From positions 1-64,000 of the forward strand of contig CALIBN010000010.1 in the NCBI GenBank assembly GCA_938045545.1: a stretch of 64,000 nucleotides of DNA. Direction: 5' to 3'. The notes below the pieces were generated by a model. That model saw only the letters and a list, made by a program, of their open reading frames with translations, was not told the DNA's origin and searched no databases. The position numbers and the translations under genes were made by a program. Shown here in pieces: positions 5,442 to 36,221 of the stretch (its first letter is position 1; every line of letters begins with the position of its first letter). This DNA is from an uncultured archaeon (GTDB lineage Archaea > Thermoproteota > EX4484-205 > JAAOZP01).

Positions 5442-5581
5442 GCTAAAAAAACGACCATATTACTATTTAACCTTTTCTCCACAAGTCCTTATCATCACGC
5501 TTTATTTTACGCACCGACTAAACACTAAATAAGCACCTGCCAAGGGTAAACCCTTGTTTGCGCACGTTAGAAGCCGACTAA

Positions 5582-5865
5582 TTAGTAGCACACGCGTCAG
5601 CCCTTTCTCCAACCCGCCTTCGCTTGGCCTATGTCAGCCGTCAATAGCGTTGAATTCTTAGCCTTCGAGAAGACGATGCGGAGCGTATCATAGATCGTTA
5701 TCCCCGCCTCATGACCATTCTCACGGCTTCATCGACGCAGCCACTTCTTTCTAAATTTTTTTCAAAGTGCTTCAAGAGGCATCTTTAACGCCAATAGAGC
5801 GGAATCGGCTTCCCCTCCGGATAGTTCGCCATGCCCATGCCTCCTTAAAACAACGCTTGAAACAT
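5582..5865 (-). pseudogene. degenerate copy of vapC 3926-4330
   Basis: Nucleotide blocks shared with 3926-4210 (tgtcagccgtcaatagcgtt, atcatagatcgttatccc), with indels. Confidence 0.75.
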
Positions 5866-19854: not shown

Positions 19855-20433
19855 GCTGCGACACCCGCCTTATTAAAACCCCTTCTAGAGGGGGATGTGC
19901 ATAGCCTGACGCCTGGGCTCGACCAGCCTTAACCACCGCTACCCTGTGCTTCGAAAGCATAGCGTAGGTATCTGACCCATCCCACCTGTATTTAAGCTAT
20001 TCAGTCAGTATGCTAATCTAAATACTTCCTAGTCGTAATCCTGATGAAAAGCCTGAAATCCGCTAGCTATCAACGCTTCTACCCCTGCAGGAGGATTCCT
20101 GCACGCTTATTCTCAGCCGGCTATTCAGGGGAAGGCGGTAAGGAGGTGGAAGCTCTTCTGCACGTTTAGGCTGTCCAACCAGCTTTACACTATCCCGCTC
20201 ATCAAGCCTCCGATAAACCCCGGAAGCCCCATCAAGACCGGGGGGGACAAGGAGTATGAGCGTGGCGACGAGAGAGAAGAGAGTGAGAATTAGGCGTCCA
20301 CATGCAGTCGCCCAAGGTTTTTCAAGATTATTGTACAGTTAAAGTGAACGTCATTCGCTGGAAAGCTTGGAATAGTAAGACTTTGTAAACAGAGCACGCT
20401 TATAACTCAGACGCGACGCGATAAGGTAGAGAC

Positions 20434-20772
20434 ATGTCTGAATCTGAATACCTTAGACTAAGTTTGAAACATCTTAAGGAGGCTGAGAAACCTCTAGAGA
20501 AGAAAGATTATTCTCAAGCACATGAAAAACTCTGAGGGACCTTTGTAGAAGCAGTGAAGGCAGTAGCCGTTGAACGGGACATAAGTCTCTGAACTCATAG
20601 AGCATAGCTGAATTCATATCTAAGCTTCACAGAGAAAAACCCAGACAGCGAAGCGCACGCTATGCTGCTGGTTACGGCATATTCGACCTTCTGTATAAGA
20701 GCATGCTACTGGAACAAACTCATGCTTGCAGTCAGCGAACGTAAAGGGCTCGTCGAAATCAAGAGCCATTAA
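20434..20772 (+). pseudogene. PaREP1 family pseudogene
   Basis: MSESEYLRLSLKHLKEAEKPLEKKDYSQAHEKL*GTFVEAVKA aligns with 6-353; in-frame stops and indels. Confidence 0.8.
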
Positions 20773-20842
20773 GACACATGTTACAAGTTAAGAGTGAAGA
20801 TATGTCTAAAATCTTAAATTATAGTAGCGCACAGACTACTCA

Positions 20843-22054
20843 ATGGTTACAAGGCTGGTTGGTCTCTCGGGTAAGCCCAATGTTGGTAAGTCAACATTGT
20901 ACTCAGCCTTGACGCTGAACATTGTTAAGATTGCTGATTATCCTTTCACCACGTTGACTCCGAACAAGGGTGTTGGCTATTTGAGGAAGAAGTGCGTCTG
21001 CAAGAGTCTCGGTGTCGTCGATAATCCTGTGAATTCCAGGTGTGTAAACGGCTTCAGGTTTATTCCGGTTGAGCTGGTCGACCTTCCTGGTATTGTTCCT
21101 GGGGCGCACGAGGGCAGGGGTCTCGGAAACCAGTTTCTATCCGAGATAAGTATGGCGGATGCTTTGATTCATGTTGTTGACGCTTCAGGCAGCTTGGATG
21201 CTGAAGGTAGGCCGGCTGATCCCGATCCTGAGAACACTTTGAGGGACATAAGGTTTCTGGAGGACGAGTATGATCGTTGGCTCGCCGGAATTATTGAGAG
21301 GGGTGTTCAGAAGGCTCCTAGGGCTAGGCCTAGCAGGAGAAGTGTTGAGGATGTTCTAAGCCAGGTTTTAAGCGGCCTAGCGATAGGAAGGGGGGATGTT
21401 GAGAAGGCTGTTGAAAGGGTTAACCCGCCTGACGAGTTCTCAAAGTGGAGCAGGGAGACGATGATCGAGCTGGCTAGGACGATTAGGATGATTGCTAAGC
21501 CGATGGTTATAGCAGCGAACAAGATTGACAAGAAGGGGGCTGAGGAAGGGGTTAGGCGGATGAGGGAGGCGGGCTATGATCCCATCCCGATCAGCGCTGA
21601 GGCGGAGCTTGTCCTCAGGAGGGCTGCTGAAGCAGGGCTTGTAGAATATTTCCCTGGGGATAATGACTTTAAGATTGTTAGGCCTGAGACGCTTAGGGAG
21701 AAGCAGAGGGAGGCTCTTGAAATGGTTAGGGAGAAGGTTTTGAAGCATTGGGGTTCGACCGGTGTTCAGGAGCTTTTAAACATGGTGTACTTCAGGGTTC
21801 TTAAAATGATAACTGTTTACCCCGTTGAGGATCCGAATAAGCTTACCGACAAGAAGGGGAATGTTCTGCCCGATGTCTACCTTGTCCCGATGGGGATGAA
21901 TGTTAAGGAGTTCGCCGGGCTCATACACAGCGACCTTATGAACAATTTTCTCTACGCTATTGACGCTAGGCGTAAGATTAGGCTTGGCGAGGACTATGTT
22001 TTAAAGGATGATGATGTGGTTAGCATTGTAGCCGTCGGCAGGCAGAAGAGCTGA
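20843..22054 (+). CDS. ychF: Obg-family YchF-like NTPase with TGS domain
   Basis: GKPNVGKST, YPFTT, DLPG, NKID, TGS domain. Confidence 0.9.
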   Translation: MVTRLVGLSGKPNVGKSTLYSALTLNIVKIADYPFTTLTPNKGVGYLRKKCVCKSLGVVDNPVNSRCVNGFRFIPVELVDLPGIVPGAHEGRGLGNQFLSEISMADALIHVVDASGSLDAEGRPADPDPENTLRDIRFLEDEYDRWLAGIIERGVQKAPRARPSRRSVEDVLSQVLSGLAIGRGDVEKAVERVNPPDEFSKWSRETMIELARTIRMIAKPMVIAANKIDKKGAEEGVRRMREAGYDPIPISAEAELVLRRAAEAGLVEYFPGDNDFKIVRPETLREKQREALEMVREKVLKHWGSTGVQELLNMVYFRVLKMITVYPVEDPNKLTDKKGNVLPDVYLVPMGMNVKEFAGLIHSDLMNNFLYAIDARRKIRLGEDYVLKDDDVVSIVAVGRQKS

Positions 22055-22079
22055 CTTAGGCTAAAAACAATTGTTAAAT

Positions 22080-22364
22080 CTATCTGTATTTTTCAACGTA
22101 GTAACCAGCCTGCTTCTTAGGGCCGTAGAACCTGACTCCCTTCTCCACTATCCTCTTTTTTATGACGCGGGCAACCCTCTCCGGAAGCTCGTTCCGGGAG
22201 ACGAGGAAGTCCACTATCTGAAAAGCCTCCTCCTCACTGTCGCACCTCCTAATATAGTCGAAAACGTTTGGAACATATCCTTTAAGAGTCTTAGGCTCAA
22301 GGCTCTCAGAGTATCCTTCATCCGCGATCTTCATCAGCTCCTCCTCACTGAGGCTCGTAGACAT
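22080..22364 (-). CDS. DUF2095-like conserved archaeal protein
   Basis: GYVPNVFDYIRRC, GVRFYGPKKQAGYY. Confidence 0.75.
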   Translation of the reverse strand: MSTSLSEEELMKIADEGYSESLEPKTLKGYVPNVFDYIRRCDSEEEAFQIVDFLVSRNELPERVARVIKKRIVEKGVRFYGPKKQAGYYVEKYR

Positions 22365-22365
22365 C

Positions 22366-22968
22366 TTAAACAGCCTCGGCTAGGCTCACCCTAACCTCCT
22401 CAAACCTAATCGGGGATTCGAGAACATTCATCTTCTTAATTCCTGCGAGCTTTATCCTGTGAAACTTCTTAGCCTCATTATAAAGGTCTGACTCGATCTT
22501 CCCGAAGACGAGCTCTTGAACCAGCTGGGAATAGTTCAGCTTGCTACACTTGCCTAAAACTATGTTCATCATCGCCTTCCTCATCTTCTTCTTCTGGGAT
22601 TGCGAAGCACGGTAACGGGTCACGGCGATTGCTGAAACACGCATCCGGTAGCCATCCTTCGTAGTGGCGTTGAAAATAATGTCAACCCTCGAGGATCCTT
22701 TTCTAAGAAGGCTTCTCACGAAATCCCTGTCAAGCTCGTAGCCCCATAGTTCTGTGAGGGCAGTCTCCCCCTTTACGCCGGTGATTTTGAACTTTATTTT
22801 AACGGTTGTGTGAGAAGGATCGTCCGTCAGCTCGCTTAAAAGAACGCTTATAGTCCTGCCTATTAGGCCGCTTGGCTCTGAGGCTAGGACGCTGCCTACT
22901 GGCTTGCCCCCGAGGTAGTCCGGGGCAACTACTGGAAACCATTTTTTAGCCTTTTTCTGCTTCACCAA
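22366..22968 (-). CDS. rps3ae: ribosomal protein eS1 (S3Ae)
   Basis: KKWFPVVAP, DFVRSLLRKGSSRVD, TKDGY. Confidence 0.95.
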   Translation of the reverse strand: MVKQKKAKKWFPVVAPDYLGGKPVGSVLASEPSGLIGRTISVLLSELTDDPSHTTVKIKFKITGVKGETALTELWGYELDRDFVRSLLRKGSSRVDIIFNATTKDGYRMRVSAIAVTRYRASQSQKKKMRKAMMNIVLGKCSKLNYSQLVQELVFGKIESDLYNEAKKFHRIKLAGIKKMNVLESPIRFEEVRVSLAEAV

Positions 22969-23090
22969 TCCGGAAGAGGCTTGCGGGCAGCGTATTTAAA
23001 CTATGCTCTTCAGAAGCCCCGCGTATATGCAGCTTTTGCCAGCATCATAACCTATAAAAGCCTATTTTAAGCAGGATTGTCACCGCAACG

Positions 23091-24656
23091 TTGGAGGAGA
23101 AGCAGATAGTGGTTAAGGATTTAAGGCTGATGGTCTCTGCAGACCTTTACTTAAGCCGAGAGCTGCGGGGGGATGAGGTTGAAAGGGTTGCGGAGTATGC
23201 CGTTTCAAGCTTCCCAAGAGTATTCGCTCGGGGGGCGGTTAAGGGCGAGGAGCCCAAGATAGTTGAGCTGACCGTCACCAGGGAGAGGGTGAGCGTCACG
23301 GTGGAGTCTGGAAGAAGGGTTAGGGCACATGAAGCTGTTAAAAGGGCTAGGAAGGTCTTGGGCGATGAGCTTGGGCCTAAAATGGGGCTGGGCGTCAGGG
23401 GGATCAACGTCAAGTCTTTCCAAGTAGCTTTCATAGGGGAAAACCTAAGGGAGGTGAGGCTCCCGTTTGTTAGGAAGGTCGAGAAGACGGGGGAAGGCTT
23501 GAAATACTGGCTTGAGGTCGACGAGTCTGGCCTCTACGCTCAGGTTCCCGACAGGATCATAAGCCTTTTCCTGGAGAAGCAGGAGGCCCGTGCAATAGGC
23601 AGAGAGGTTCACAGAGTTGTCTGGCGTAGCTCGGAGAAGCCTGTTAAGTATGCTTCGGACCCTGGGCTGCTGCTGGAGGAGGAGGGGTGGGTTAAAAGAT
23701 TCCACCCCGGCATATGGTACTACCTCCAGCCCTACACTAGTCTTCTGAGAATACTTGAGGAAATGATTATTGAGAAGGTTGCGAAGCCGCTGGGCTTTCA
23801 GGAGGTTGTTCTACCTAAGCTTATACCGCTTGAAGTCGCGAGGAAGAAGGGCCACCTCTCCGGGATCCCTAGCGAGATGCTTTACGTCTGCGAACCCGGT
23901 TCAAGGGAGCCTTCCTACTTCGAGGATTACACTGACCTGGTTAAGGTTTTCAACGAGCCTAAGCCCGAAATCTTGAAAACGTTTCTGAAGGAGCCTGCTT
24001 ACACTCTTCCATACGCGCAGTGCGAGCCCTTCTACGAGCTTTTCGCCGGGGAGACCGTGAACCTTGACAACCCTCCTGTCAGGCTTTACGACAGATCCGG
24101 GTTCAGCTTCAGGCATGAGGCAGGAGGCTTAAGAAGCCTCGAGAGGCTTACAGCATTCACAAGGATAGAGATAGTCTATCTTGGCAGGCCTGAGGAAGTT
24201 GTTGAGATTAGAGATAGGCTGGTGGAGAACTATCTGAGACTGCTCGACAAGACGCTTGACATAGAGGTCAGGTCTGCCGAGGTAACCCCGGTCTGGATGG
24301 CTCACGCAGGCGTCATAAAGGATGTTTCCAGAAACATCGCCGCAACCTTCGACATTGAAGCCTACCTCCCGTTTAGAGGAGACAGGGAAAGCGAGTGGCT
24401 TGAAATAGCCAACGCGTCTGTCCACTACGACAAGTATGTTGATTGGTTCAACATTAAGGAGAGAAAGGGGAGGGAGGTTTGGACCGGTTGCTCAGGCAAT
24501 GGTCTTGAAAGATGGGTCTATGCTTTCCTAGCTAGACATGGCTTCAACGCTGAAGACTGGCCTGTAGAAGTGAAGAGGCGGTGGCCAGACTTTAAGCCTG
24601 TGATCATGGACACTTGGCCTCCTCGAGCGTTGAAGAAGCCTCCTGAATCATCTTAA
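23091..24656 (+). CDS. serS: seryl-tRNA synthetase, methanogen type (type 2)
   Basis: N-domain ESGRRVRAHEA, YAQCEPFY, DRSGFSFRHEAGG, F.RIE, TGCSG.GLERW. Confidence 0.9.
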   Translation: MEEKQIVVKDLRLMVSADLYLSRELRGDEVERVAEYAVSSFPRVFARGAVKGEEPKIVELTVTRERVSVTVESGRRVRAHEAVKRARKVLGDELGPKMGLGVRGINVKSFQVAFIGENLREVRLPFVRKVEKTGEGLKYWLEVDESGLYAQVPDRIISLFLEKQEARAIGREVHRVVWRSSEKPVKYASDPGLLLEEEGWVKRFHPGIWYYLQPYTSLLRILEEMIIEKVAKPLGFQEVVLPKLIPLEVARKKGHLSGIPSEMLYVCEPGSREPSYFEDYTDLVKVFNEPKPEILKTFLKEPAYTLPYAQCEPFYELFAGETVNLDNPPVRLYDRSGFSFRHEAGGLRSLERLTAFTRIEIVYLGRPEEVVEIRDRLVENYLRLLDKTLDIEVRSAEVTPVWMAHAGVIKDVSRNIAATFDIEAYLPFRGDRESEWLEIANASVHYDKYVDWFNIKERKGREVWTGCSGNGLERWVYAFLARHGFNAEDWPVEVKRRWPDFKPVIMDTWPPRALKKPPESS

Positions 24657-24879
24657 GATGGGTCAAGTAATCGGTCAGCGTGTAGGCCAGGGACATTAAT
24701 CCTCTTTTACAGGCTACTTTAAAAAGTATTCTTCGGCCTTTTAAACTGGACGACACCTTAAGCCCCTCAACCTTCAAAGCCTCATCCGGCTTCAACGCTA
24801 AGTACGCAAGCCTTGCTTCAAGCTTGCTCCTGAAAACAGCTTCAAGAACCGCGAAGCATGCTGAATCGTTCTGCCACAT
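24604..24879 (-). CDS. KEOPS subunit Pcc1-like
   Basis: About 90 aa with ALKPD motif; follows rps15 and the DHH gene as in other archaea. Confidence 0.7.
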   Translation of the reverse strand: MWQNDSACFAVLEAVFRSKLEARLAYLALKPDEALKVEGLKVSSSLKGRRILFKVACKRGLMSLAYTLTDYLTHLKMIQEASSTLEEAKCP

Positions 24880-26278
24880 TCCTTTCGAAAGCCTCCATGA
24901 AGGAGTGAAATCTTCTCCTGGGCACGGTTGCACCGGCTGCAACATCATGCCCTCCTCCGAGCCCTCCGGATTCTCTGGCAGCGTTCGAAGCCAGCATGCT
25001 ACCTTTAATACCCTTCTCAACAAGGCTCCTCGGAACCCTTATTGAAACCTTGAGCGAATCATCCTCAGCGGCGGTTACGACCAGGATCTTGCCAAGATCC
25101 TTGGGAAGGCTGGAGAATATTATTGAGGCAACCGGGCTCAACACTCTTTGGTCTATGATTCCCTCGCCGTTGTAAAGCAGTATTTTTTCAGACTCGATCT
25201 TGGCCCCCGGCATGCTTAGAAGGTTTGAGAGAGATTTTGAGATGGCTGTCCTGTATTCCCGACTCACTCGTTGAGCCTCCTCAAACATTCTGCCTCTTTC
25301 ACCCATCGCAACCGCCAAGCCTACGGCTGAACGCCCCATTCTCGCGCAAGAGTTCAACAGGGCTGAGAACTCCCTGCCGTCTCTTAAAACAGTGCCTCTG
25401 GGCTCTTTTTCAAAGACATAAATTGTGCCAAAAAGGTTTTGAGCACTCTCGGGTGAGAAGCCAAGGTCAGCGATATACTGCATTAAACCTGCGAGAAGCC
25501 TTGACCTCTCAGCCTGTGAGAGGTCGCTGAAAGTCCTCCATTTGTCATCAGTCTTAACCTCTATGCCGAGGCTTCTTAAAAGGTTTAGAGCAACATTCTC
25601 ATCACCACTCAGCCCAGGTATTATGAAGTTCGACGAGGAAGATATTGAGACATGTATCGGCAGGGTTTCCCTGCCGAAGAACACGAAGTCCTCCTCGACC
25701 CTAACTATGTTCATCTCCTCTCCTTCAAGAACTATCGTAGAGTTTAACCCTGTGAGCGACCTGTTAACACCCGTGTCCTGCATGTCGGCCAGCGCGCCGA
25801 CTATGGCTAGCTCATTCATCCTTGAGAAGTCTTCAACCAGGTTCTTGAAAACCAGGTATGAAACCCCTGAGCCGGAGATTTCTGAGCCACCGTTTAAACC
25901 ATGCTCATTAGGGTTCAGCATGAGAACACTGTTCGAATCGCCCTCAACCTCATGATGGTCAAGTACGACGACCCTGGAAGGATCCAGAACACTCGTTATC
26001 TCGCTCAAGTATCCTGCCCCAATATCCAGGAAAAGCACGGGCCTGGGGGGGAATGCAATGCTTTCCAGAAACACCCTGTCTATCTGAGTCACGGACCTTG
26101 CTGAGAAGGATACACCCATGCTTTTCAAAGCGAGACAAGCTATAGCTGCGGCAGCAGTGCCGTCTGCATCTGCATGGAAAACTATTAACGCATCACTCCA
26201 GTCGAAGGAACCCAGCCTGCTCGCAAAATCCCTTGCTTCAAAAATGAACCTCCTCTGAGTCTCCGACGCATGGCTCAT
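24842..26278 (-). CDS. DHH/DHHA1 RecJ-Cdc45 (GAN-like) protein
   Basis: HADADG, LDHH, GGGH..AAG. Confidence 0.9.
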   Translation of the reverse strand: MSHASETQRRFIFEARDFASRLGSFDWSDALIVFHADADGTAAAAIACLALKSMGVSFSARSVTQIDRVFLESIAFPPRPVLFLDIGAGYLSEITSVLDPSRVVVLDHHEVEGDSNSVLMLNPNEHGLNGGSEISGSGVSYLVFKNLVEDFSRMNELAIVGALADMQDTGVNRSLTGLNSTIVLEGEEMNIVRVEEDFVFFGRETLPIHVSISSSSNFIIPGLSGDENVALNLLRSLGIEVKTDDKWRTFSDLSQAERSRLLAGLMQYIADLGFSPESAQNLFGTIYVFEKEPRGTVLRDGREFSALLNSCARMGRSAVGLAVAMGERGRMFEEAQRVSREYRTAISKSLSNLLSMPGAKIESEKILLYNGEGIIDQRVLSPVASIIFSSLPKDLGKILVVTAAEDDSLKVSIRVPRSLVEKGIKGSMLASNAARESGGLGGGHDVAAGATVPRRRFHSFMEAFERNVAERFSMLRGS

Positions 26279-26715
26279 ATTTTTGCTTCAAGAACCTTCA
26301 GGTCGGGTAGGGGCACCTTCCTCCTAGAGTAGTAACGAGCAAGCCTCCTAATCTTAGACTCCACCAGTTGAAGATTGTGAACGTTGAAACGGTCAGACCT
26401 GTTCCTAGTTAAATGAGTAACCATCCTCTCAGCCTTAGCCACAAGTCTATCAAGATCCTCAGTCCTGGAGAACCTGACCCCCTTTTCGAGAAGTATTCTC
26501 GAAATCTTTTTACCAGTTATATTCCTGACGGATGGAACCCCGTACGAGTCCCTCAGGATCAACCCTATTTGAGAAGGACCATGCCCCTCTGACGCAAGCT
26601 TGACCACAAGCCCCTCAACCTCCTCAGGCTTCAACGACAACCATGGCGGAGCCCCACTGTAGACTACTCTACGTGAACCCGACTTACCCTTCTTATGGCT
26701 ATGCATCCTAGCCAA
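26275..26715 (-). CDS. rps15: ribosomal protein uS15
   Basis: ARMHS.KKGKSGS, LRDSYGVP, ESKIRRLARYY. Confidence 0.95.
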   Translation of the reverse strand: MARMHSHKKGKSGSRRVVYSGAPPWLSLKPEEVEGLVVKLASEGHGPSQIGLILRDSYGVPSVRNITGKKISRILLEKGVRFSRTEDLDRLVAKAERMVTHLTRNRSDRFNVHNLQLVESKIRRLARYYSRRKVPLPDLKVLEAKI

Positions 26716-26919
26716 TCTTTAAGCCAACTTTCTCTTGCAACCCCCCTATTTAAGCGTTCCCTGAAAACACTCCCTGACCCAATAGCACGAAACGTTCGTT
26801 CTTCACACGAAGCTTCAACAGCCGGCAGTAGAATCGACACCGCTTCAGAGGTTGCGTGCGACGAGCATAACGTGCGTGGTAAAAACAAAGAAGTAATGGT
26901 TTTCAAGGACAGACACCGC

Positions 26920-27134
26920 TAGACCTACCGAACCTTCCTCACATTCCCCTTTAGTCGAGAGATTCCGGGTTTGTCAGCCAAGCTTCATCCTAAGTGGTTG
27001 GGACTCGTAAAAAAGCCTCTGTCGTACGCGTATAAAACATGACCCGTTTCATAATGCCCATCGCACCATTAAGTCCATGTTGTAAGAATACCATAACCTA
27101 AGCATAACTGTTTATAATCATAATAATGACAATC
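26920..27134 (-). pseudogene. remnant of a Cys-rich gene that shares its 5' part with the cassette gene
   Basis: Reads DCHYYDYKQLCLGYGILTTWT*WCDGHYETGHVLY; begins at the left repeat copy. Confidence 0.5.
27102..27134. repeat. 33-bp direct repeat, left copy
   Basis: gcataactgtttataatcataataatgacaatc, identical to 29755-29787. Confidence 0.95.
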
Positions 27135-27137
27135 AAA

Positions 27138-27821
27138 CTAATAATTTTCGGATCTCAGATTTTTAGATTCAGATGCTACAAGGTCAACCAAAACTTCATC
27201 CTCAGTGACATCAACATCAGAAACCTCAAGCCTATCTATGTCTAATGAGAGTCCATAACCTAGAATACGTTTAGCCAGTTTATTTTTAATTAAATTCTCT
27301 GACAGGAATCGGATGAATTCGAGCATCTCATTAAAATTGAAGTGGAAGGCTCCCACCGTCATCCTTAATCCGTATTCGGGTTCAAGCTCGACGAACAAGT
27401 TCATATCCGGAAAGACTAATATTTCCCTTCCGTCCGTTAATGGTTTCACCCGTGGATCGTTTTTAACTTTCTCGATACACATACCTGTGAGGATTTCGTA
27501 CTCTTTCTCTATCTCCTCAAGCGTCTTCAAGTGTTCCTTATACGAGGCTTCCTCCATAAGAAACTCCATCGTAATTTCATAAACTTTATTTTTCCCAGTA
27601 AGGGCTAGGCTTAGTAGTCTTTCCACTAAAAATCCGACGCTCCTCGGATCATCTGTATAAACATCGATTCCAAAAATTATACCCTCACGTCGATCTTTAC
27701 CAACTAAAGCTATATGACACTCTTTAGTTGCTTCTCTCCAAAACTTCTCAATACATGATTCACTGTTGGCTCTGGCAGCTTCGTATTTATCACCCCATCC
27801 CCAAACAGTAATCCTACTCAT
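27138..27821 (-). CDS. hypothetical acidic protein
   Basis: 227-aa ORF 6 nt after the LAGLIDADG stop, ending next to the left repeat. Confidence 0.75.
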   Translation of the reverse strand: MSRITVWGWGDKYEAARANSESCIEKFWREATKECHIALVGKDRREGIIFGIDVYTDDPRSVGFLVERLLSLALTGKNKVYEITMEFLMEEASYKEHLKTLEEIEKEYEILTGMCIEKVKNDPRVKPLTDGREILVFPDMNLFVELEPEYGLRMTVGAFHFNFNEMLEFIRFLSENLIKNKLAKRILGYGLSLDIDRLEVSDVDVTEDEVLVDLVASESKNLRSENY

Positions 27822-27827
27822 TTCTCA

Positions 27828-28730
27828 TCATCCCTTTTTGGGCCTCCCTCCCTTTAATTTACCCTCCTCGTACGCTTTTAAGAATTCTTCGAATTTCTCT
27901 ACATGTGCAGGACTATAGCTTCCTATTTCTTTAATGAACCTTATCCGATCTTGAGCATATATCTCTAAATAATGCGTCCCATAAGTCTTATCAAGACGAA
28001 CCTCAGAAGGCTGAAAACCTATCTTTACTAAGGCTTCTCTTACCTCTTCCAAGCAATCCCCGTACTTTGAAGATATTCGAAGTTTAATTGAATACCTTCC
28101 ATGTCTTGCAACACTTCCATCTCCAGAGAAGAATCCTCTTAAATACGCTTTAATACCATCTTCGTCCAAATGTTCTAAGGGTACATGATACCTGTAAGGT
28201 CCGGTTTTAGCCCCAATCTCCCTCAGATCATAATATGCCCTTTTATCTTTTATCCCCGCTATAAATTCGCCCTTACCACAGTAAATATGCGGAGATCTAT
28301 TATAAACCTTCTCGAACAACTCAATATACCTTTCGATGAGTTCCATATCAGCAGAGTGAAAGAAGATTTGGCGAGACTCTCCCTCATAGGGAGATAAGCT
28401 GCCTTCTGCAGCTATAAGGCCGCATAATTCCGCTTTCTCAGGAGTAAGAATTTCTCTAATCCCACTACTATATACTTCTAACAATGTCCCATGGCTCAGA
28501 GGAAACAAAATTCTATCTTCTTTTATTCTTGCTTCTGCAAAAGTTGAGATAACATCATTTCCTCTAAATAGCTCATATTCTCCACTTTCTGTTACACCCA
28601 CTTTATATTCGCCAAAATCCATTATCTCCCTATAAGCCTTTTTATAACATTCTTTCTCTCGTTCTGTTAGAAACAGCTTTCCCTCCCGAAACCTTGACGC
28701 ATATTGATCTATTAATGAGCCCCCGCCCAA
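27828..28730 (-). CDS. free-standing double-motif LAGLIDADG endonuclease-like protein
   Basis: AELCGLIAAEGS and AYLRGFFSGDGS; no intein splice-junction motifs. Confidence 0.85.
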   Translation of the reverse strand: MGGGSLIDQYASRFREGKLFLTEREKECYKKAYREIMDFGEYKVGVTESGEYELFRGNDVISTFAEARIKEDRILFPLSHGTLLEVYSSGIREILTPEKAELCGLIAAEGSLSPYEGESRQIFFHSADMELIERYIELFEKVYNRSPHIYCGKGEFIAGIKDKRAYYDLREIGAKTGPYRYHVPLEHLDEDGIKAYLRGFFSGDGSVARHGRYSIKLRISSKYGDCLEEVREALVKIGFQPSEVRLDKTYGTHYLEIYAQDRIRFIKEIGSYSPAHVEKFEEFLKAYEEGKLKGGRPKKG

Positions 28731-29820
28731 CTCTTACTTCTCCTCAGCCAATCCAGCAAATTATGAAGAGCCAGTATTCTTTTACAGGATTCTGGACTTT
28801 CCACCCATAAATTGATAAGATCCTGTGGCATCTTACCTCTACAAGCATCACAATAACATTCCTTAAATCTTATCTTCTCGTCCCGCATATCGTATAATTT
28901 GGCGTCTCGAAAATAAAGGCCATGTTTAGCTTCAAGAAACCATGAAAAATTGCTATAACTTATCTCTTTGTATCCAAGTTTTCGTCCAACTCCGTAAATA
29001 AGTATTTCAAGTTTTTTATTATTAACTCTACCAAGCCTCTTCAACATGAGTAACACATGAGGAAGAAGATCGTTTAACAAGCCCTGCTCAAAAAGTTCCC
29101 TTGCAGGCATAACAAATGAAACATAATTCATTTCAACTTCCCTTCTAAGAGACATATAGATCTGACGCAGATTTGCGCCCTTGATTAAGCCAATTAACGG
29201 AATATCGAGATCTAAAAAATCATTTGCAAGCGATATTAATCGCATAGTTTGAGACCAAGATTGGTATAATGGGGCGTCAACATAAGTATAGTTATCGGGA
29301 ATCATTGTAGCATCTGGCCTTAACTCTTTAATCAGTTTCAAGTAATCATCCTTCGTAAGCTTATCAATAAGCTCATCAGGCATAACCGTGGACAACAATA
29401 TCTTTCCATTAAATTTAGAAAATCGTGAAGACCTTTGCTTGAAGCCCCCGACAATAAATCGCCATTAAGAAACAGTTGCCAGAGAGGGACAAAAATAGCA
29501 GGTGCATCTATTTCTTCTCTCCAAAACCATGATTCACGATTCCCTATATCAATTTGAGGAACAAACGTTGAAAAGTTAATCTTAGGCATATCCTTTTTCC
29601 TTAAATGATGAAGAAGGATGAGAGGTGGCCTCGTTAGCCCTCCAATAGGGCAGTATGCCCTCAACTTGCAGAAAGATTTGGGGTATGTAATACCTGAGAA
29701 AGAAATACCCCTGGGACATGAATCTACGAGGCAACGTTCAATTGCACAGCCTGGGCATAACTGTTTATAATCATAATAATGACAATCTATACACGAGATT
29801 CCGCACTTACTTTTCCTCAT
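28712..29820 (-). CDS. divergent TGT-fold (DUF4417-like) protein with Cys-rich N-terminus, split by a -1 frameshift near 29410
   Basis: Joins ORFs 29338-29820 and 28712-29398 as LHDFLN(F/L)NGKILLST; PDNYTYVD.P; C-terminal CYCDAC...LALHNL zinc motif. Confidence 0.7.
29755..29787. repeat. 33-bp direct repeat, right copy (inside the TGT-like coding start)
   Basis: Identical to 27102-27134; encodes DCHYYDYKQLC on the minus strand. Confidence 0.95.
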
Positions 29821-30373
29821 GCCTGCTCAGGAACCATGATGCAAATTTTCTTAACGCCCGAGCCCTGTGAGAAAACTTATTCTTCTCCTCAGTGCTCATC
29901 TCCGCGAAAGTCAGGTTAGAGCCGAAAGGTATGAAGAGGGGGTCATAACCGAACCCGCTTTTCCCGCGTGGCTCTGTTGCGATTGTCCCGTCGACTCTTC
30001 CTGTGAAGATTTTAACATCTTTGCCCGGCTCGCCGTATGCTAGGGCTGTCATGAAGTATGCTGATCTGTCTGCTGAGCCTGTTAGAAGCTTCAGTATTCC
30101 CTCGCAGCCTATCTTCCTGTAAACGTATGAGGAGTATACTCCCGGGAAGCCGTTCAGAGAGTTTACGAATAGCCCGGAGTCCTCGATTATGAAGCGTTCC
30201 CCTATTTTTTTCAAAGCCTCCTGGGCGCATTTCTCAGCAACCTCCTCCAGGGTTTCCGATTGGGGCTCGGTTATTTCAAGGTCAGCCTGTTCAAGCGTTA
30301 TCCCGAATTCCCTGAGCAGTTTCTGCGCCTCGAGGAATTTCCCAAGGTTTCCCGTTATGAAGACTAGCTTCAT
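29807..30373 (-). CDS. rdgB: XTP/dITP diphosphatase (Ham1)
   Basis: TGNLGK, EDSGL, GFPGVYS, GFGYDP, SHR. Confidence 0.95.
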   Translation of the reverse strand: MKLVFITGNLGKFLEAQKLLREFGITLEQADLEITEPQSETLEEVAEKCAQEALKKIGERFIIEDSGLFVNSLNGFPGVYSSYVYRKIGCEGILKLLTGSADRSAYFMTALAYGEPGKDVKIFTGRVDGTIATEPRGKSGFGYDPLFIPFGSNLTFAEMSTEEKNKFSHRARALRKFASWFLSRHEEK

Positions 30374-30436
30374 CAGCCATTTTCCCCTTTGAGACCTATT
30401 AAAGCTTAAAACTTCTCAGGAGGCGAGTATGCGGGT

Positions 30437-31645
30437 ATGGAGTATCAGGATGGTGAGGCTCTGGTGTGCATGGATTGCGGTGCAACCCATGAGCCTGAGG
30501 GAGGTTTACTCGTCTGCGGGAAATGCGGGGGGCTCTTGGAGGTTGCTTACCCTAGGAGTGTTTTCAGAAGCGTCTCGTTCAACGGCAGGGGTGTTTGGAG
30601 GTATAGGAGCATCCTCCCTAGGGTTGAGAGAACCGTCACTCTGGGCGAGGGGGATACTCCGCTGGTTAAGGTTGAAAGGCTTGGAGAATCCCTTGGTTTG
30701 AGAAACCTCTACGTAAAGTTTGAAGGGGCGAATCCAACTGGTTCTTTTAAAGACAGGGGTATGACTGTAGCCGTCAGCATTGCCCTCAAGTTCCATGCTA
30801 GGAGTGTGGCGTGTGCTTCAACAGGAAATACTTCAGCATCAATGTCGGCCTACGCTGCAAGGGCTGGCTTAAGGAGCATCGTCTTCCTTCCAGACGGATA
30901 TGTTGCCCCGGGGAAGCTTCTCCAGGCTGTTGCCCATGGGTCCACGATAGTCAGGGTCAGGGGGAACTTTGACGAAGCCTTGAAAACGCTTCTCTCGCAC
31001 CGGGAGGAGCTCGGTGTTTACGTTTTAAACTCCGTGAACCCGTATAGGGTTGAAGGTCAGAAGACAGTTGCCTTCGAAATATGGGAGGGCCTTAACCGTA
31101 CTCCTGATTTCGTCGTGTACCCTGTTGGAAACGCGGCCAACATATCCTCAGGCTGGAAGGGTTTTAAAGAGCTGGTTGAAGCTGGGCTGGCTGATTCCAA
31201 GCCGAGGATGATAGGGGTTCAGGCTGAGGGAGCCGCCCCAATAGCAAAGGCCTTCCTCCGGGGAGAGGAAGCCATAGAGACTGTTGAGAAGCCCGAGACT
31301 GTTGCGACAGCAATAAGGATCGGTAGGCCGTTTTCCTGGAAGAGAGCGCTCAAAGCGTTAAGAGATTCGCGGGGGACAGCGGTTACGGTTAGCGACGGGG
31401 AAATATTGAGGGCTCAGGTAGACCTCGCTAGGATGGAGGGCTTGTTCGCTGAGCCGGCTGGAGCAGCCCCGGTGGCGGGCCTAGCTAGGCTTTCTAAACA
31501 AGGGTTCTTCAAAGGTGATGAAACGATCGTCGCCGTGGTTACGGGACACGGCTTGAAGGATCCTAGTGTAAACATAGAGCCCTATGCTGAGCTCATAATC
31601 CACCCTGGTGAAAACCCTGCGGAGGCTTTGAGGAAACTGCTATGA
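30437..31645 (+). CDS. thrC: threonine synthase
   Basis: NPTGSFKDRG, ASTGNTSAS, TGHGLKD. Confidence 0.95.
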   Translation: MEYQDGEALVCMDCGATHEPEGGLLVCGKCGGLLEVAYPRSVFRSVSFNGRGVWRYRSILPRVERTVTLGEGDTPLVKVERLGESLGLRNLYVKFEGANPTGSFKDRGMTVAVSIALKFHARSVACASTGNTSASMSAYAARAGLRSIVFLPDGYVAPGKLLQAVAHGSTIVRVRGNFDEALKTLLSHREELGVYVLNSVNPYRVEGQKTVAFEIWEGLNRTPDFVVYPVGNAANISSGWKGFKELVEAGLADSKPRMIGVQAEGAAPIAKAFLRGEEAIETVEKPETVATAIRIGRPFSWKRALKALRDSRGTAVTVSDGEILRAQVDLARMEGLFAEPAGAAPVAGLARLSKQGFFKGDETIVAVVTGHGLKDPSVNIEPYAELIIHPGENPAEALRKLL

Positions 31646-32652
31646 GGATCCTTCTGATAGGCTTTGGTAACGTTGGAAGAGCCTTCCTCCAGCTGATGGA
31701 GGAGGAGAGGAGGAGGTTCAGGAGGCTTGGAACGGACCCGAGGGTCGTTGGAATAGTGGACAGGGGTGGGGCGACGCTCTCTGAAAACGGTGTTAAGGCT
31801 AGCAGCCTCTTAACGGTCAAGATGAAGAGGGGCTCAGTAGCCTATTCTGAGCAGGGGGGTTTCCCAAGCATGGATGCGGTGGAGGCGATAAGTGTTGCCC
31901 AGCCCCATGTGACTGTTGAAGCAACCCCAACTAGCAGGGGGGGCTCAGGACCTGCTTTAAGACACATTCTTAAGGCTCTCGAACACGGTTCCCACGTTGT
32001 CTCGGCCAACAAGGCTCCTTTCGCATACGATTACGACACCGTTATGAAGACAGCGTTGTCCCGAGGAAGGATAGTGAAGTATAGTGCAACAGTCGGGGGT
32101 GGGCTGCCTGTTTTGAAAACGCTTAAAACGCTCACCGTCGGGGATTTTGTTGAAAGCTTCAGGGGGATTCTAAACGCGACCTCAAATTATATTCTCACAT
32201 TAATGGAGGAGGGGAGGAGCTACGAGGAGGCTTTGAGGCTAGCGCGTGAAATAGGTATTGCTGAGGCCGACCCGACTATGGATGTATCCGGGATGGATAC
32301 CGCCTACAAGATAACCATAATAGCTAACACTATTGAGGGGGGTCACAGGGTTGACGAGGTCGAGTTGAAAGGCATAGAAGACGTTGGACCAAAAGACTTG
32401 CGTGAAGCTGCTTTAAACGGGTATTCAATAAGGCTCGTCGGAGAGTTCACTGAGAAAGGAGGGCTTAGGGTAGGTCCTTCAAAGCTTAAGAGGGGGAGTG
32501 TGCTTGATGTGAGCGGGACGCTGAACGCGGTGGAGTTCAGAATGAAGAAGGCTGGACCGGTTTACCTGCTTGGGAGAGGCGCTGGACCGTTTGAAACAGC
32601 CGCCGCAATAATTAGAGATATTTTCGAAATACTGGAGGAGGAGAAGCGTTGA
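31642..32652 (+). CDS. hom: homoserine dehydrogenase
   Basis: GFGNVG, ANK, ATVGGGLP, GILNAT, EADP..D. Confidence 0.95.
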   Translation: MRILLIGFGNVGRAFLQLMEEERRRFRRLGTDPRVVGIVDRGGATLSENGVKASSLLTVKMKRGSVAYSEQGGFPSMDAVEAISVAQPHVTVEATPTSRGGSGPALRHILKALEHGSHVVSANKAPFAYDYDTVMKTALSRGRIVKYSATVGGGLPVLKTLKTLTVGDFVESFRGILNATSNYILTLMEEGRSYEEALRLAREIGIAEADPTMDVSGMDTAYKITIIANTIEGGHRVDEVELKGIEDVGPKDLREAALNGYSIRLVGEFTEKGGLRVGPSKLKRGSVLDVSGTLNAVEFRMKKAGPVYLLGRGAGPFETAAAIIRDIFEILEEEKR

Positions 32653-34001
32653 TAATTGTAAACCTTAACCTTGAGAACACGGGGCTCGAATTGAAATGGC
32701 TCTGCGAGAAGCTTGCTGAAAAAGCTTCGCAGGAATTATTGATCATAGTTGAGCCACGCGAGGAGATCCTTAGGGTTTTAACCGAGGCTGCTGCTTCACG
32801 CATGAGCGAGGAGGAGGCTTTAGCAAAGCTAGCCGGCGAGCTTAACGACCTGGTGAAAGGGATTCCCGGAGACCTTAGGATAAGCGTTGAAGCCGAGCTT
32901 GTTGAAAGCTTGAACAGGATCGTTGAATACCTGCATGCTGAGAAGAAGGCTGGCGGTGCAACGCCTAGGGGGCTACCCGTAATGCTAAACCTGCTCGGAA
33001 ACACTGTTGCCAAAGTCGTTTCAAGCCATTTTAACGCGCTTGGCGTCGACGCTAAATGGGTTACAGCCGGACAGGCTGGATTCACGCTCGTAGAGGACTA
33101 TGAACCGCCTTGGAGCCATTACGTGAGCCTTGTTAACCCGGATAAGTTGAAAAGCGTTTCAAAAGGGGTTCTCATAGTTTCCGGAAGGTCTTGCGTCGAC
33201 CCTGAAGGCGGCGAAGCCTCGCTTAAAAAAGGGATGGGTAGCGTAGTGTCAATACTTGCTGCCAGCGAGCTGAGAATTGGAGAGGTTTATGTCCCTAAGG
33301 CTAACGGCGGCGTCTACACAGCCGACCCCTGGACTACGGACAAGGCAAGAATCGTCCCCAGCCTATCCTACTCTGAGGCACTGGAGCTTTCAAGGCTTGG
33401 AGAATGGGTTGTAAGCCCCCAGGCTGTTGAGCTTGCTGAGGAGCTGGGAGTAAGAATAATAGTTTCAAGCATACAGGATCCTTTCAAAGAATGCACGACG
33501 ATAGGCTTTGAGAAGGCTGTTGAGAAACAGATAGTTAAGGCTGTAGCGATGATACCGGGCATGAGTATTTTAACTGTGGAGGGGGCGGCTATGGCTGGGA
33601 CCCCGGGCGTGGCTTCAGCCATACTTGGAGAGGTTGCGAAAAGAGGAGTAAGCGTATCCATGATAAGCCAGGATGCTTCAGAAATCGGCATAACCATGCT
33701 CGTCAAAGACAAGGATTTAGATATGGCTTTGAAAGGCTTGAGGGAGGGATTCAGCAGACAGAGGCTTATTAAAAGGATTAGGATGCAGAGGGGTGTTGCA
33801 GTAATATCCGCCGTCGGGGAGGGCATGAGGGGAACGAGGGGTGTTGCAGCCAGAATATTCTCTGCTGTCGCCGAAGCAGGGGTTAATGTTCTAGCCATTG
33901 CTCAAGGCTCGTCTGAGACAAGCATATCTTTCGCAGTGTCTATGGAGGACGCTGAGAAAGCTGTTAAAGCGGTTCACGACAAGGTTATAGTTGGAGTTTA
34001 G
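32649..34001 (+). CDS. aspartate-kinase-like protein with degenerate kinase domain and intact ACT domains
   Basis: GVYTADP, SYSEALEL, two ACT repeats; KFGG and RGGSD absent. Confidence 0.8.
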   Translation: MIIVNLNLENTGLELKWLCEKLAEKASQELLIIVEPREEILRVLTEAAASRMSEEEALAKLAGELNDLVKGIPGDLRISVEAELVESLNRIVEYLHAEKKAGGATPRGLPVMLNLLGNTVAKVVSSHFNALGVDAKWVTAGQAGFTLVEDYEPPWSHYVSLVNPDKLKSVSKGVLIVSGRSCVDPEGGEASLKKGMGSVVSILAASELRIGEVYVPKANGGVYTADPWTTDKARIVPSLSYSEALELSRLGEWVVSPQAVELAEELGVRIIVSSIQDPFKECTTIGFEKAVEKQIVKAVAMIPGMSILTVEGAAMAGTPGVASAILGEVAKRGVSVSMISQDASEIGITMLVKDKDLDMALKGLREGFSRQRLIKRIRMQRGVAVISAVGEGMRGTRGVAARIFSAVAEAGVNVLAIAQGSSETSISFAVSMEDAEKAVKAVHDKVIVGV

Positions 34002-34044
34002 CCTTCTCCGCGGACAACATCAGGTTTAAGCATCTACGTTCTCC

Positions 34045-34722
34045 CTATTTTTTTCCGCTTGAGGCGCGGCGTCTAAGCTCTTTCTCAACATACCTGCCCC
34101 TGCTTCCTATCTCTCTAAGCCTCTCCTCAACCCTTGCGGCGGATTCTCCAGCCGAAGCCCTGTAGCCTTCGAGGAAAAGCTTCATCAGTTTTTCAGAATC
34201 CTGAAGAGGGGTCAGACTTGAGAAAAGCGTGTAAACATCCTCAGCCTTCTTCTCAACCTCGTTTGAAAACTCTCCGAGGCCGAAATCTATCAGTGTCAGC
34301 CTGGTCTCTGAGACTAGCACGTTTGAAAACGTTAAGTCGCCATGAACAATCCCTGCGGAGTGAAGCCTTCCAACCGCATCCCCAAGCATATGGATTAGGG
34401 TTGCAAAAATGCTTGAGCTCTGCATGCTCCTTAGACTCTGGCTTCCAGCATAGCTCATTATTATCCAACCCTCGACAGGGTTCACATGGTAGACGAAAGG
34501 AGTGTTCACTCCAGCCTTCTTAGCCGAGCTCAGGAGCGATGCTTCTCTAACTGTTCTCGAACGCCTTATAAAATCGTCGAGCTCCCTAACCCTGTAGCCC
34601 TTAGAAAGCCTGGTTTTCACAACAACCTCTCTGCCGAGCCATTTGCAGAGGTCTACAATTGCCTCTGCACCTTGGTAGAGGGTTTTAATTCGAGTACAAC
34701 CCTGGGGGAGGAGACTTAACAT
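34045..34722 (-). CDS. bud32: KEOPS kinase Bud32
   Basis: QGAEA, HGDLT.SN, IDFGL, RGRY. Confidence 0.93.
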   Translation of the reverse strand: MLSLLPQGCTRIKTLYQGAEAIVDLCKWLGREVVVKTRLSKGYRVRELDDFIRRSRTVREASLLSSAKKAGVNTPFVYHVNPVEGWIIMSYAGSQSLRSMQSSSIFATLIHMLGDAVGRLHSAGIVHGDLTFSNVLVSETRLTLIDFGLGEFSNEVEKKAEDVYTLFSSLTPLQDSEKLMKLFLEGYRASAGESAARVEERLREIGSRGRYVEKELRRRASSGKK

Positions 34723-35686
34723 CACTAAGCCTCCATCTCGGTTTAACAAAAGACTCTTCAACCCTGAGGGACTCTCCCAGCCTGTACTGCACGATTCCTT
34801 CCCAAGCAATCATGACGCCGTTGTCAGCGTAATATTCAACAGGATAATCTAGGAATACAGCTTTTCTCTCCCTACACATTTGCCCAGCCATCTCCCTAAG
34901 CCTCCGGTTGGCGCCCACGCCACCGGCTATTATGAACTCGTTGAGTCCAAGCATCGCCATAGCCCTCTCCGAAACCTCTATCAGCATTGAGAAAGCGGTT
35001 TCCTGAAGCGAGAAGCAGAGATCTTCAACCGGCTCCTTTCCAACGAGGCTTTCAAGCATGGTGAGCATTCCAGAGAACGACACGTTCATGCCTTTAACAC
35101 TGTAAGGCAGCTTTATCAGCCTGCTCGACTTTGAAGCCAGCTCCATAACTCTCGGACCACCTGGGAACCCGAGGCCGGCTTTCCTAGCAAAAGCGTCGAT
35201 AAGGTTTCCAACAGCAATGTCCTCAGTCTCCCCGAGAACCACATATCTTCCCTCAGAAGTATGAATAACCTGCGTGTTCCCTCCGGAAACATAGAGTGCA
35301 ACCGGGTTAGCAGCCTTTGTTAAAACCCTCGCGATCTCTACGTGTGCAGCAGCATGGTTAACCCCCACTAGAGGTTTTCCAAGCTTCATAGCAATCATTC
35401 TTGCTAGGGCGGCTCCAACCCTTAAACACGGCCCCAAGCCTGGGCCGCGTGAAAAGGAAACCAGGTCTATGTCTTCAACACTGATTTTAGACAAAGCCTC
35501 CTGAAGAGCACTAGATGCGTTCTGAAGATGATGCTTCGCAGCTTCGCTCGGATGTATTCCGCCTGACGAAGGCCGGTAAACCCTGCGAACGTCGCAAAGA
35601 GCCTCGAAAGGAGGATGCTTCACGACACCTATGCCGAAAGTGTGGGCAGTGGATTCAACGCCGATGCACGTGAGACGCTCCTCCAC
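34685..35686 (-). CDS. kae1: t6A synthase Kae1/TsaD
   Basis: ESTAHTFG, NHAAAHVE, VSGGNTQ, DNGVMIA. Confidence 0.95.
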   Translation of the reverse strand: MEERLTCIGVESTAHTFGIGVVKHPPFEALCDVRRVYRPSSGGIHPSEAAKHHLQNASSALQEALSKISVEDIDLVSFSRGPGLGPCLRVGAALARMIAMKLGKPLVGVNHAAAHVEIARVLTKAANPVALYVSGGNTQVIHTSEGRYVVLGETEDIAVGNLIDAFARKAGLGFPGGPRVMELASKSSRLIKLPYSVKGMNVSFSGMLTMLESLVGKEPVEDLCFSLQETAFSMLIEVSERAMAMLGLNEFIIAGGVGANRRLREMAGQMCRERKAVFLDYPVEYYADNGVMIAWEGIVQYRLGESLRVEESFVKPRWRLSDVKSPPPGLYSN

Positions 35687-35703
35687 AGGCTAGACGCTCC
35701 CCC

Positions 35704-35865
35704 TCATCTTTGGAACTCGGTGTAGTTGCACGCGCCGCAGTGCCACCTGGGCTTTCCCTCCTTGTGGAACGCCATAACCCTGCCACACCTGGGGCACTTC
35801 CTATTCCTAAGCCTCACTGATGCCTTGCTCGCGTCAACCTCGTAGTATTTCACAGTGTCCTTCAT
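35704..35865 (-). CDS. rps27ae: ribosomal protein eS31 (S27ae)
   Basis: Not in the ORF track; translates [10 protein letters not shown]...[12 protein letters not shown]...[11 protein letters not shown]. Confidence 0.92.
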
Positions 35866-36221
35866 CTCTTACCACCGGCTGCCTTAGCCTTCATCTCCAT
35901 CCTCATCTTCTTAATCTCCTCTTTCCTGCGCCTCTTCTCCTCCGGAGGCAGGTTTGCAACCCTGACGTGCATCGGTTCGATCCTAGCGTACTCCGGTGAA
36001 AAATAGATATGTGCCTCGCCGATCGATGATTGTCTCCCTGAAACGCTTTTAAGACTCCTAACGTAGACTGCTTCAAGGGATGCCCTTTTTAAGGCTGAAA
36101 CAGCCTCCCTGGCTTCAGCCATTGTGGGAGTCTTACCCCCGGGGTGCGGGATCTCGAACACTATCTCCACCCTCTTTAAAAGAGGATTGTCAACCTCTTT
36201 AAGTATCCTGATCTCCGTCAT
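35862..36221 (-). CDS. rps24e: ribosomal protein eS24
   Basis: [13 protein letters not shown]; conserved gene order. Confidence 0.9.

Follow-up and report, generated by a model that had tools for sequence, protein, structure and literature searches.

A direct repeat inside a coding 5' end brackets one copy of a three-gene cassette at the ham1 3' end of an uncultured archaeon

Introduction

Why should the same 33 base pairs stand twice between two housekeeping genes, ham1 and rps15, of a hot-spring archaeon, once within the 5' end of a TGT-like gene and once in non-coding DNA on the far side of that gene's neighbours, and what is the DNA that lies between them? The window analysed here is the whole 64,000-nucleotide stretch from position 1 of contig CALIBN010000010.1 (GenBank assembly GCA_938045545.1). 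The genome that it belongs to, here G000, is that of a Brockarchaeota-type archaeon and is assembled to 2.03 Mb in 51 contigs. A preliminary description, made from the letters alone, proposed that a circular 2.65-kb cassette without a recombinase had recombined into a resident paralogue through the repeat, had taken over its start and its coupling to rdgB (ham1), and had orphaned the old gene body, in a manner resembling displacement in polymorphic toxin loci.

The explanation that we favour, with a confidence only a little better than even, is a different one. The two repeat copies would delimit a single copy of a selfish three-gene cassette located at the ham1 3' end. The cassette would have been inherited vertically, its repeats kept alike by gene conversion, and in one close relative, G006, it would have been deleted between them.

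Results

The repeat pair is real

Repeat finding gave a two-copy family of 48 nt, at 27087–27134 and 29740–29787 (88% identity), within which 33 nt are perfect (the two repeat copies of Table 1). When the 33-bp repeat was searched for with up to three mismatches, 2 matches were found against 0.00 expected (100 shuffles). No third copy was present in the whole G000 assembly with up to six substitutions allowed, so that the search for further copies suggested by the preliminary description returned only these two. Both copies translate on the minus strand as DCHYYDYKQLC, as first described, the perfect part now being seen as the core of a 16-codon stretch. From 27102 outwards to 27087 the left copy continues in degraded form, with 9 of 15 nt identical. 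The 33-bp repeat is thus real and far beyond chance.

The architecture is identical in the independent assemblies of two relatives, G002 and G016, and one contig of a single sequencing run, X2, covers the left flank, the cassette and the right repeat. Because of this recurrence, an assembly artefact, the outcome that might have undone the first description, is unlikely for the repeat pair.

A discrete unit of three genes

The unit between the repeats is 2,653 bp long and carries three genes on the minus strand, in the order TGT-like, LAGLIDADG, ORF227. The trio spans 29820–27138 and so keeps the rule of its family, about 2.6–2.9 kb on one strand. The GC content of the unit is 0.389 (0.36–0.42 along it) against 0.49–0.52 in the flanks. 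The start of the TGT-like gene at 29820 overlaps the ham1 stop, and the right repeat copy lies 34 nt inside the gene; the preliminary description was correct both in running the right copy into this gene and in coupling it to rdgB. Its statement that no recombinase is present, however, overlooked the nuclease gene inside the unit.

The TGT-like gene is broken by a 1-nt deletion near 29414. Its ortholog in G016 is a single open frame of 369 aa, and runs X2 and X4, which represent strains 97–98% identical, have one extra base behind 29414. Run X1, likely the source of this DNA, reads as the window does. Since the ortholog is intact and the extra base is present in X2 and X4, the gene is a pseudogene in this strain only. 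A profile of 20 family members aligned with the archaeosine TGT of PDB 1iq8 over residues 58–318 (E 4.7e-8). The scores against Pfam TGT (PF01702) were 17.2–24.1 bits, under the cut-off of 26.3, and that against TIGR00432 was 11.2 with a cut-off of 350. The family keeps the CxCxxC...H zinc signature and has, in addition, an N-terminal module in which 9 Cys are invariant. The catalytic Asp residues of 1iq8, which we take to be D95 and D249, face Ser columns in the profile alignment (S144, invariant, and S290, nearly invariant), an alignment distant enough that it may slip by a few residues.

The Pfam LAGLIDADG_3 match on the nuclease covers two stretches, and the residues E/D109-G110 and D204-G205, one pair in each LAGLIDADG motif, are kept in all 22 aligned family members. 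The third gene, open reading frame (ORF) 227, had no match in Pfam, NCBIfam or PADLOC. Its profile (21 members) retrieved 81 cluster representatives among 1.84 billion, family members and fragments only, with many fragments. An AlphaFold2 model of the protein (pLDDT 91.4) consists of two beta-alpha-beta-beta-alpha-beta halves; no Foldseek match in the PDB reached E ≤ 0.001, and the best VIA hit (Z 6.6) was to generic ferredoxin-like or little-finger-like folds. The three proteins are strongly conserved within the family, with 50–59% mean column identity and many invariant residues. In Pfam, NCBIfam and PADLOC they showed no integrase, transposase or Rep domain and no methyltransferase or restriction-enzyme family, and the PADLOC defence models gave only weak 'TGT' and 'HEase' rows. 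The closest database proteins (130 matches at E ≤ 0.001) are all 'hypothetical' and come from Brockarchaeota or Thermoproteota metagenome-assembled genomes.

The cassette is a many-copy family

By tblastn, all three genes were found together at six further loci of G000, on contigs C11 (twice), C40, C42, C18 and C12, with proteins 33–67% identical to those of the window. Fragments were found on C16, C47 and elsewhere. The cassette is therefore present in at least seven copies in this genome, and all seven have a GC content (0.389–0.460) below that of the genome (0.480). A TGT-like match at E ≤ 1e-20 occurs in 19 of 30 relatives, with up to 14 per genome, many of them broken. Individual G000 copies vary in their state: the TGT-like gene is split into two ORFs in the C40 copy (locus L025) and has in-frame stops in the C12 copy (L027), and in the C18 type (L024) the third gene is inverted and lies upstream of the TGT-like gene.

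Flanking repeats were examined at 37 cassette loci in 21 genomes, some of them cut by contig ends. A perfect direct repeat of 25–135 bp brackets the cassette at 13 of the 37, and at five loci (L023, L025, L034, L042 and L046) a tRNA 3' end, as called by ARAGORN, lies under the repeat. In 11 of the 13 the upstream repeat precedes the TGT-like start by 92–866 bp, and the downstream repeat is found at or just past the end of the last gene. The window locus and its G002 ortholog alone have the upstream repeat within the TGT-like gene. The window locus keeps the downstream rule, with its left copy 3 nt past the ORF227 stop, and breaks the upstream one. Because one repeat copy lies within the TGT-like gene, the locus is an atypical, secondarily rearranged member of the family.

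At locus L005 of G021 the cassette is bracketed by perfect 135-bp repeats (1358–1492 and 4161–4295) that consist of the last 44 ham1 codons and the stop, and the third gene's own stop codon falls within the downstream repeat. G016 has, about 180 bp past ORF227, a 46-nt duplicate of the ham1 3' end (83% identical). Judging by these duplications, the ham1 3' end is the usual target of this cassette lineage. The cassette is a small, many-copy selfish DNA unit without a known integrase. The portions of the literature searched on Brockarchaeota mobile elements, on LAGLIDADG together with transglycosylases and integrative elements, and on long target duplication gave no description of it.

The left copy is a short stub

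What the left copy runs into was tested with ten cassette proteins by tblastn against 26716–27134. The sole protein-level match was to aa 12–27 of the TGT-like protein of G016, over the first 48 nt (E 1.4e-5). The left copy and its continuation thus form a 16-codon stub of a TGT-like 5' end. At the nucleotide level, the G002 and G016 cassettes are homologous to the window only as far as 27102 and 27103, respectively. On the minus strand the left copy reads on as CLGYGILTTWT*WCDGHYETG, and G006 has CLGC in place of CLGYG; the Tyr codon of the window was formerly a Cys codon, as had been proposed. The earlier picture of a gene remnant on the left therefore stands as far as these 16 codons, but TGT-like similarity goes no further and the orphaned gene body has to be given up. 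In local alignments covering 26716–27101, the flank beyond the 48 nt scored 18 against the TGT body, no better than its shuffles (20.9±2.1). A copy of the ham1 3' end in this flank was rejected likewise (16 versus 17.4±2.4 for shuffles). ARAGORN found no tRNA in the window, and Rfam gave no match at E ≤ 1 in 20000–36000.

A 77-nt piece of this flank, 27014–27089, is 75% identical to sequence that stands, inverted, at both ends of the 3.5-kb contig C4 and also occurs at the end of contig C24 and on C17. The piece probably belongs to some further repeated or mobile sequence that interrupts the assembly, and because of this resemblance other repeated DNA seems to have cut the stub short. In run X2, 27000–27077 is replaced by 79 other letters.

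The stub also lies within the original borders of the element, because the ham1 duplicates of G021 and G016 are at the far side and, in G016, outside the stub. Its position would fit a second, truncated cassette 5' end, rather than prove one. The DNA that separates the stub of G016 from its outer ham1 duplicate was considered as the remains of a second cassette and rejected: it has no cassette homology and only weak matches to other repeats, and positions 4775–4860 of L019 are 78% identical over 85 nt to a small repeated sequence on G000 contig C8 (9434–9518).

The ham1–rps15 interval varies, and G006 has the site without the cassette

The interval between ham1 and rps15 was compared in 16 genomes of the group and in G021. 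Across the 16, the distance between the two genes ranges from 81 bp (G004) to 3,812 bp (G016), a variability that the preliminary description had proposed to look for. A complete cassette is found in G000, G002, G016 and G021, the last belonging to another family and being 71–74% identical. G018 has a cassette that lacks 27873–28381, G012 and G008 keep only ORF227 and a piece of the nuclease gene, and G007 and G009 retain remnants with other deletion end points. The interval holds unrelated content in G003 and G010 and only 81–181 bp in G004, G011, G013, G014 and G015. In these genomes the interval is a graveyard of cassette remnants. Stubs suspected by eye in two cassette-free genomes were dropped, that in G013 at a score of 24 against shuffles of 16.1±2.2 (maximum 27) and that in G010 at 17 against 17.1.

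Two further observations concern the interval. In G016 (L019, about 4790–5820), beyond the second ham1 3' fragment, there is an interval of about 900 bp that G003 (L012) has directly after ham1; it contains several overlapping open frames. G018 (L018) belongs to another family, and its cassette is 85–88% and its ham1 82% identical to the window in nucleotides, while its rps15 is 52% identical in protein. In G018 the block, ham1 included, seems rather clearly to have moved horizontally across family borders.

G006 carries one repeat copy and no cassette. Its flanks are 96.7–98.2% identical to the window, and window segments 26000–27134 and 29746–30600 map to it joined by a single 42-nt overlap, which bears out the early view of a discrete unit. 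No high-identity cassette contig exists in the G006 assembly, a draft of 160 contigs, where the best matches to the cassette part are paralogues at 66–67%.

The junction is old and the repeats probably exchange sequence

The age of the arrangement can be judged from the junction between the ORF227 stop and the stub. This junction is present in G002, G016 and G007 and, degraded and recognised by eye, in G008 and G009 too. The cassette segments of G000 are 86–90% identical to those of G016 and G002, compared with 87–90% for the neighbouring DHH, rps15, ham1 and thrC. The distances of G000 in the ORF227 tree (0.14 to G009, 0.17 to G012 and 0.18 to G016) track those in the flank tree (0.11, 0.15 and 0.16). 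The flank tree places G000 and G006 together, with G007, G009 and G012 (support 99/99), and G016, G008 and G010 outside. The stub junction is therefore old, and in G006 the cassette was most likely lost when the two repeats recombined with each other. On the simplest view, cassette and stub were already present in the clade ancestor and the state of G006 would be a recent loss. The shared junction, and the fact that cassette and flanks have diverged to the same extent, do not support a recent swap-in.

The two copies have not evolved independently. Those of G000 are identical at 33 of 33 positions, and both copies of G002 share four substitutions relative to G000. The copies of G016 and of G007 are not homogenised. 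In run X1 the left-flank unitig ends at 27121 with six differences, two of which are listed (26967 and 27090); the other four fit exactly the four positions at which 27092–27101 differs from 29745–29754. The X1 node common to both copies is 43 bp long (29745–29787), not 33, with a depth of 45.1 against 24.8 for the cassette unitig. We infer that X1 contains a variant in which the left copy was converted by the right over ten more bases, a reading based on contig coordinates, counts and an assembly word of the Logan contigs that we take to be 31. As the repeats seem to exchange sequence, their perfect identity is no proof of a recent insertion.

Table 1. Positions of the repeat copies, the cassette genes and the bordering features in the window
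Feature	Position	Strand	Remarks
Right repeat copy	29755..29787	.	Codons 12-22 of the TGT-like gene; degraded similarity to the left copy reaches 29740
Left repeat copy	27102..27134	.	Starts 3 nt past the ORF227 stop; degraded continuation to 27087
TGT-fold gene, Cys-rich N-terminus	28712..29820	-	Split into ORFs 29338-29820 and 28712-29398
LAGLIDADG nuclease gene, single-chain, 300 aa	27828..28730	-	Pfam LAGLIDADG_3, E 8e-15
ORF227, orphan third gene	27138..27821	-	Stop 3 nt from the left repeat copy
Non-coding flank, stub to rps15	26716..27086	.	Whole stretch common only to G006
ham1/rdgB, non-canonical purine NTP pyrophosphatase	29807..30373	-	Pfam Ham1p_like, E 6.1e-56
Ribosomal protein S15 gene, archaeal S13/S15 type	26275..26715	-	Pfam Ribosomal_S13_N, E 3.9e-25; other border of the interval

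Discussion

Weighing the favoured explanation

The history that best accommodates these results runs as follows. The right repeat copy is part of the live TGT-like gene, and the left copy is the stub of a cassette 5' end. This stub may have been laid down once, in the clade ancestor, either by recombination of one cassette with another or by a partial tandem duplication whose second copy was truncated. The cassette would then have been inherited vertically in the genus, because cassette and flanks are equally diverged. Gene conversion would account for the observed co-variation of the two copies. The repeat may also have served as the substrate of a precise deletion, which would explain the structure of G006, with the cassette gone and one copy left. 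In other relatives the cassette has decayed by unrelated internal deletions, and in this strain by the frameshift in the TGT-like gene. Elsewhere the family members resemble insertions with a long target duplication at tRNA or ham1 3' ends, apparently made without an integrase.

Several observations weigh against this history. The empty site is known from one assembly, and its solo junction was found 0 times in an exact-match scan of metagenome contigs. No Logan contig of the four runs joins across the cassette; there the repeat is longer than the assembly word, which hides the junction of a circle, and the lack of such contigs therefore does not argue for absence. The direction of the difference between G000 and G006 is inferred, the pair containing no outgroup of its own. 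Around G000 the star-like cassette trees contain no supported forks; that no incongruence is visible in them falls short of proving vertical descent. Two types of 5' end exist, DC[HY]YYDY in G000, G002 and G016, and SCYYYDF in G007 and G018 with a similar SCHYYD in G009, and these types cut across the flank tree. Since they do not follow it, at least one local replacement or conversion has taken place at this site within the genus. A recent crossover within the core could likewise leave 33 perfect nt next to a stretch with 6 mismatches in 15. Finally, the tandem-duplication origin of the stub is a conjecture; in G016 the stub is followed, up to the outer ham1 duplicate, by other, unrelated DNA that resembles repeats.

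Alternative explanations

A broader proposal, tentative and in our view somewhat unlikely, treats the cassettes as autonomous mobile elements of an undescribed mechanistic class, in which the nuclease, the TGT-fold protein and ORF227 together insert the 2.7-kb unit at tRNA and ham1 3' ends, with long target duplications and without an integrase. Here the TGT-fold protein, catalytically remodelled, would possibly recognise tRNA-gene-like targets. If true, an element that at this locus leaves and re-enters the chromosome through a repeat in its own first gene would explain why the empty site is exact and why the cores of the repeats are homogenised.

An active integrative element at the window locus is a further explanation, which we consider unlikely. 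The repeat would be the core of an attachment site, and an unrecognised recombination activity of the cassette, supplied by some combination of the nuclease, the TGT-fold protein and ORF227, would excise a 2.65-kb circle and re-insert it. G006 would be the product of a precise excision, and the copies would be identical since each cycle regenerates them. Such an element would account well for the discrete boundaries with their exact empty site, for the identity of the cores within genomes although the species differ, and for the conservation of the three proteins. The family-wide flanking repeats, perfect over 135 bp in G021 and often placed at tRNA 3' ends, a classic target of integrative elements, point in the same direction. 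However, none of the three proteins contains an integrase, transposase or Rep domain, and the fold of ORF227 brought no recombinase match, the best VIA hit (Z 6.6) being to generic folds. In a circle from this locus the TGT-like gene would lack its start and first 11 codons. The repeat lies upstream of the gene in the 11 remaining repeat-flanked copies. The repeat lengths also vary widely, and no circle was seen in the Logan contigs, in which the repeat would conceal it.

A recent swap-in, the version closest to the preliminary description, is distinctly improbable. In this scenario the solo site of the G006 type is ancestral for the G000 lineage, and a circular or linear cassette from a relative recombined into the resident stub through the 33–48 nt, with ham1 as second arm, and acquired the start codon already in place. 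A core crossover predicts what is seen at the outer edge of the left repeat, precisely where the resemblance to the G002 and G016 cassettes breaks off, and it suits the abrupt change from perfect to degraded identity. Upstream of the right copy, 33 nt resemble those of G006 (1 mismatch in 66, compared with 83–86% identity to G016 and G002), and the block does move between lineages, as in G018. Against this, the G000 cassette is no closer to other cassettes (best 86–90%) than the flanks are, so that a donor would have to be an unsampled one; its terminal branch in the cassette trees is long (0.10–0.11); and the stub junction is older than the split from G002, G016 and G007. Incongruence between cassette and flank trees was dropped as a proof of the swap, because the cassette trees are unresolved.

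An artefact of assembly, whether in the repeat or in the empty site, is very improbable indeed: although the X1 unitigs break at the repeat, with a cassette depth of 24.8 against 35.5–35.7 in the flanks, and G006 is a draft, the layout recurs in G002, G016 and the X2 contig, the depth of the 43-bp node is about twice that of the cassette and fits a sequence present twice per genome if AT-rich DNA is covered less deeply, and G006 has no high-identity cassette contig.

Taken as a whole, the earlier account was right in spirit, as regards the discrete cassette, the variable site, the TGT-like relic and the coupling to ham1, and wrong on the gene body, the nuclease and the recent swap.

What the locus offers

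The cassettes form an archaeal family whose set of three genes is fixed and unlike that of the bacterial restriction-modification units discussed below; there are many copies per genome, and the cassette passes across family borders. The window locus provides a natural pair of filled and empty sites with base-exact borders and signs of repeat exchange. The ham1–rps15 site, the tRNA 3' ends and the 33-nt core are substrates with which the roles of the nuclease, the TGT-fold protein and host recombination could be separated. For annotation, a 'TGT-like' gene of this kind is probably not a tRNA-modification gene.

Comparison with known systems

Archaeal integrative elements of the SSV and pNOB8 types use tyrosine recombinases and target tRNA genes. 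The present cassette resembles them in the location of other copies at tRNA 3' ends and in its exact empty site. It differs in having no integrase, in its size as a three-gene unit of 2.65–2.9 kb, in its ham1 target and in having its working repeat within one of its own genes.

Free-standing LAGLIDADG homing endonuclease genes are selfish, patchy, often decaying and spread between lineages, and homing leaves no direct repeats. The cassette is likewise selfish, patchy and decaying, and encodes a single-chain LAGLIDADG protein in which both catalytic acidic residues are kept. Unlike such genes, it has flanking direct repeats, and two further conserved genes always accompany the nuclease gene. 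Moreover, empty-site windows no longer than the repeat remain in the filled allele, and insertion alone therefore cannot protect the site.

The known enzymes closest to the TGT-like protein are archaeosine TGT and DpdA-type DNA transglycosylases; its family profile matches the archaeosine TGT of 1iq8, and the zinc signature is kept. It is unlike archaeosine TGT in scoring below the Pfam and NCBIfam cut-offs, in having Ser at the positions that we take to be those of the catalytic Asp, and in its extra Cys-rich N-terminal module.

Polymorphic toxin loci contain displaced C-terminal 'orphan' modules, and the likeness seen at first lies in a common 5' segment followed by different downstream sequence. 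It does not hold further: there is only a 16-codon stub, Pfam shows no toxin or immunity family, and there is no series of orphan modules.

A nearer parallel is provided by restriction-modification units that were inserted 'with long target duplication' and carry no further gene for mobility (Furuta, Abe and Kobayashi 2010, Nucleic Acids Res 38:2428, PMC2853133). In that paper the repeats are 46–47 bp and longer, some lie at gene 3' ends or tRNA genes, the mechanism is given as unknown, and the screen kept no archaeal case. Like those units, as described there, the cassette is small, has a GC content below that of its host, carries no integrase or transposase, and is bounded by direct repeats of more than 30 bp that are single in the empty genome. 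The same screen selected inserts of less than 20 kb with a repeat of more than 30 bp that is single in a relative without the insert; the corresponding values here are 2,653 bp and 33 nt, with G006 as the relative. The cassette differs from those units, which by the same criteria contain homologues of both restriction and modification genes, in content, with a TGT-fold gene, a LAGLIDADG gene and an orphan in place of a methyltransferase and a restriction enzyme, and in that the repeated stretch at the window locus is codons 12–27 of a cassette gene and not a host target. Insertion with long target duplication is the closest described pattern.

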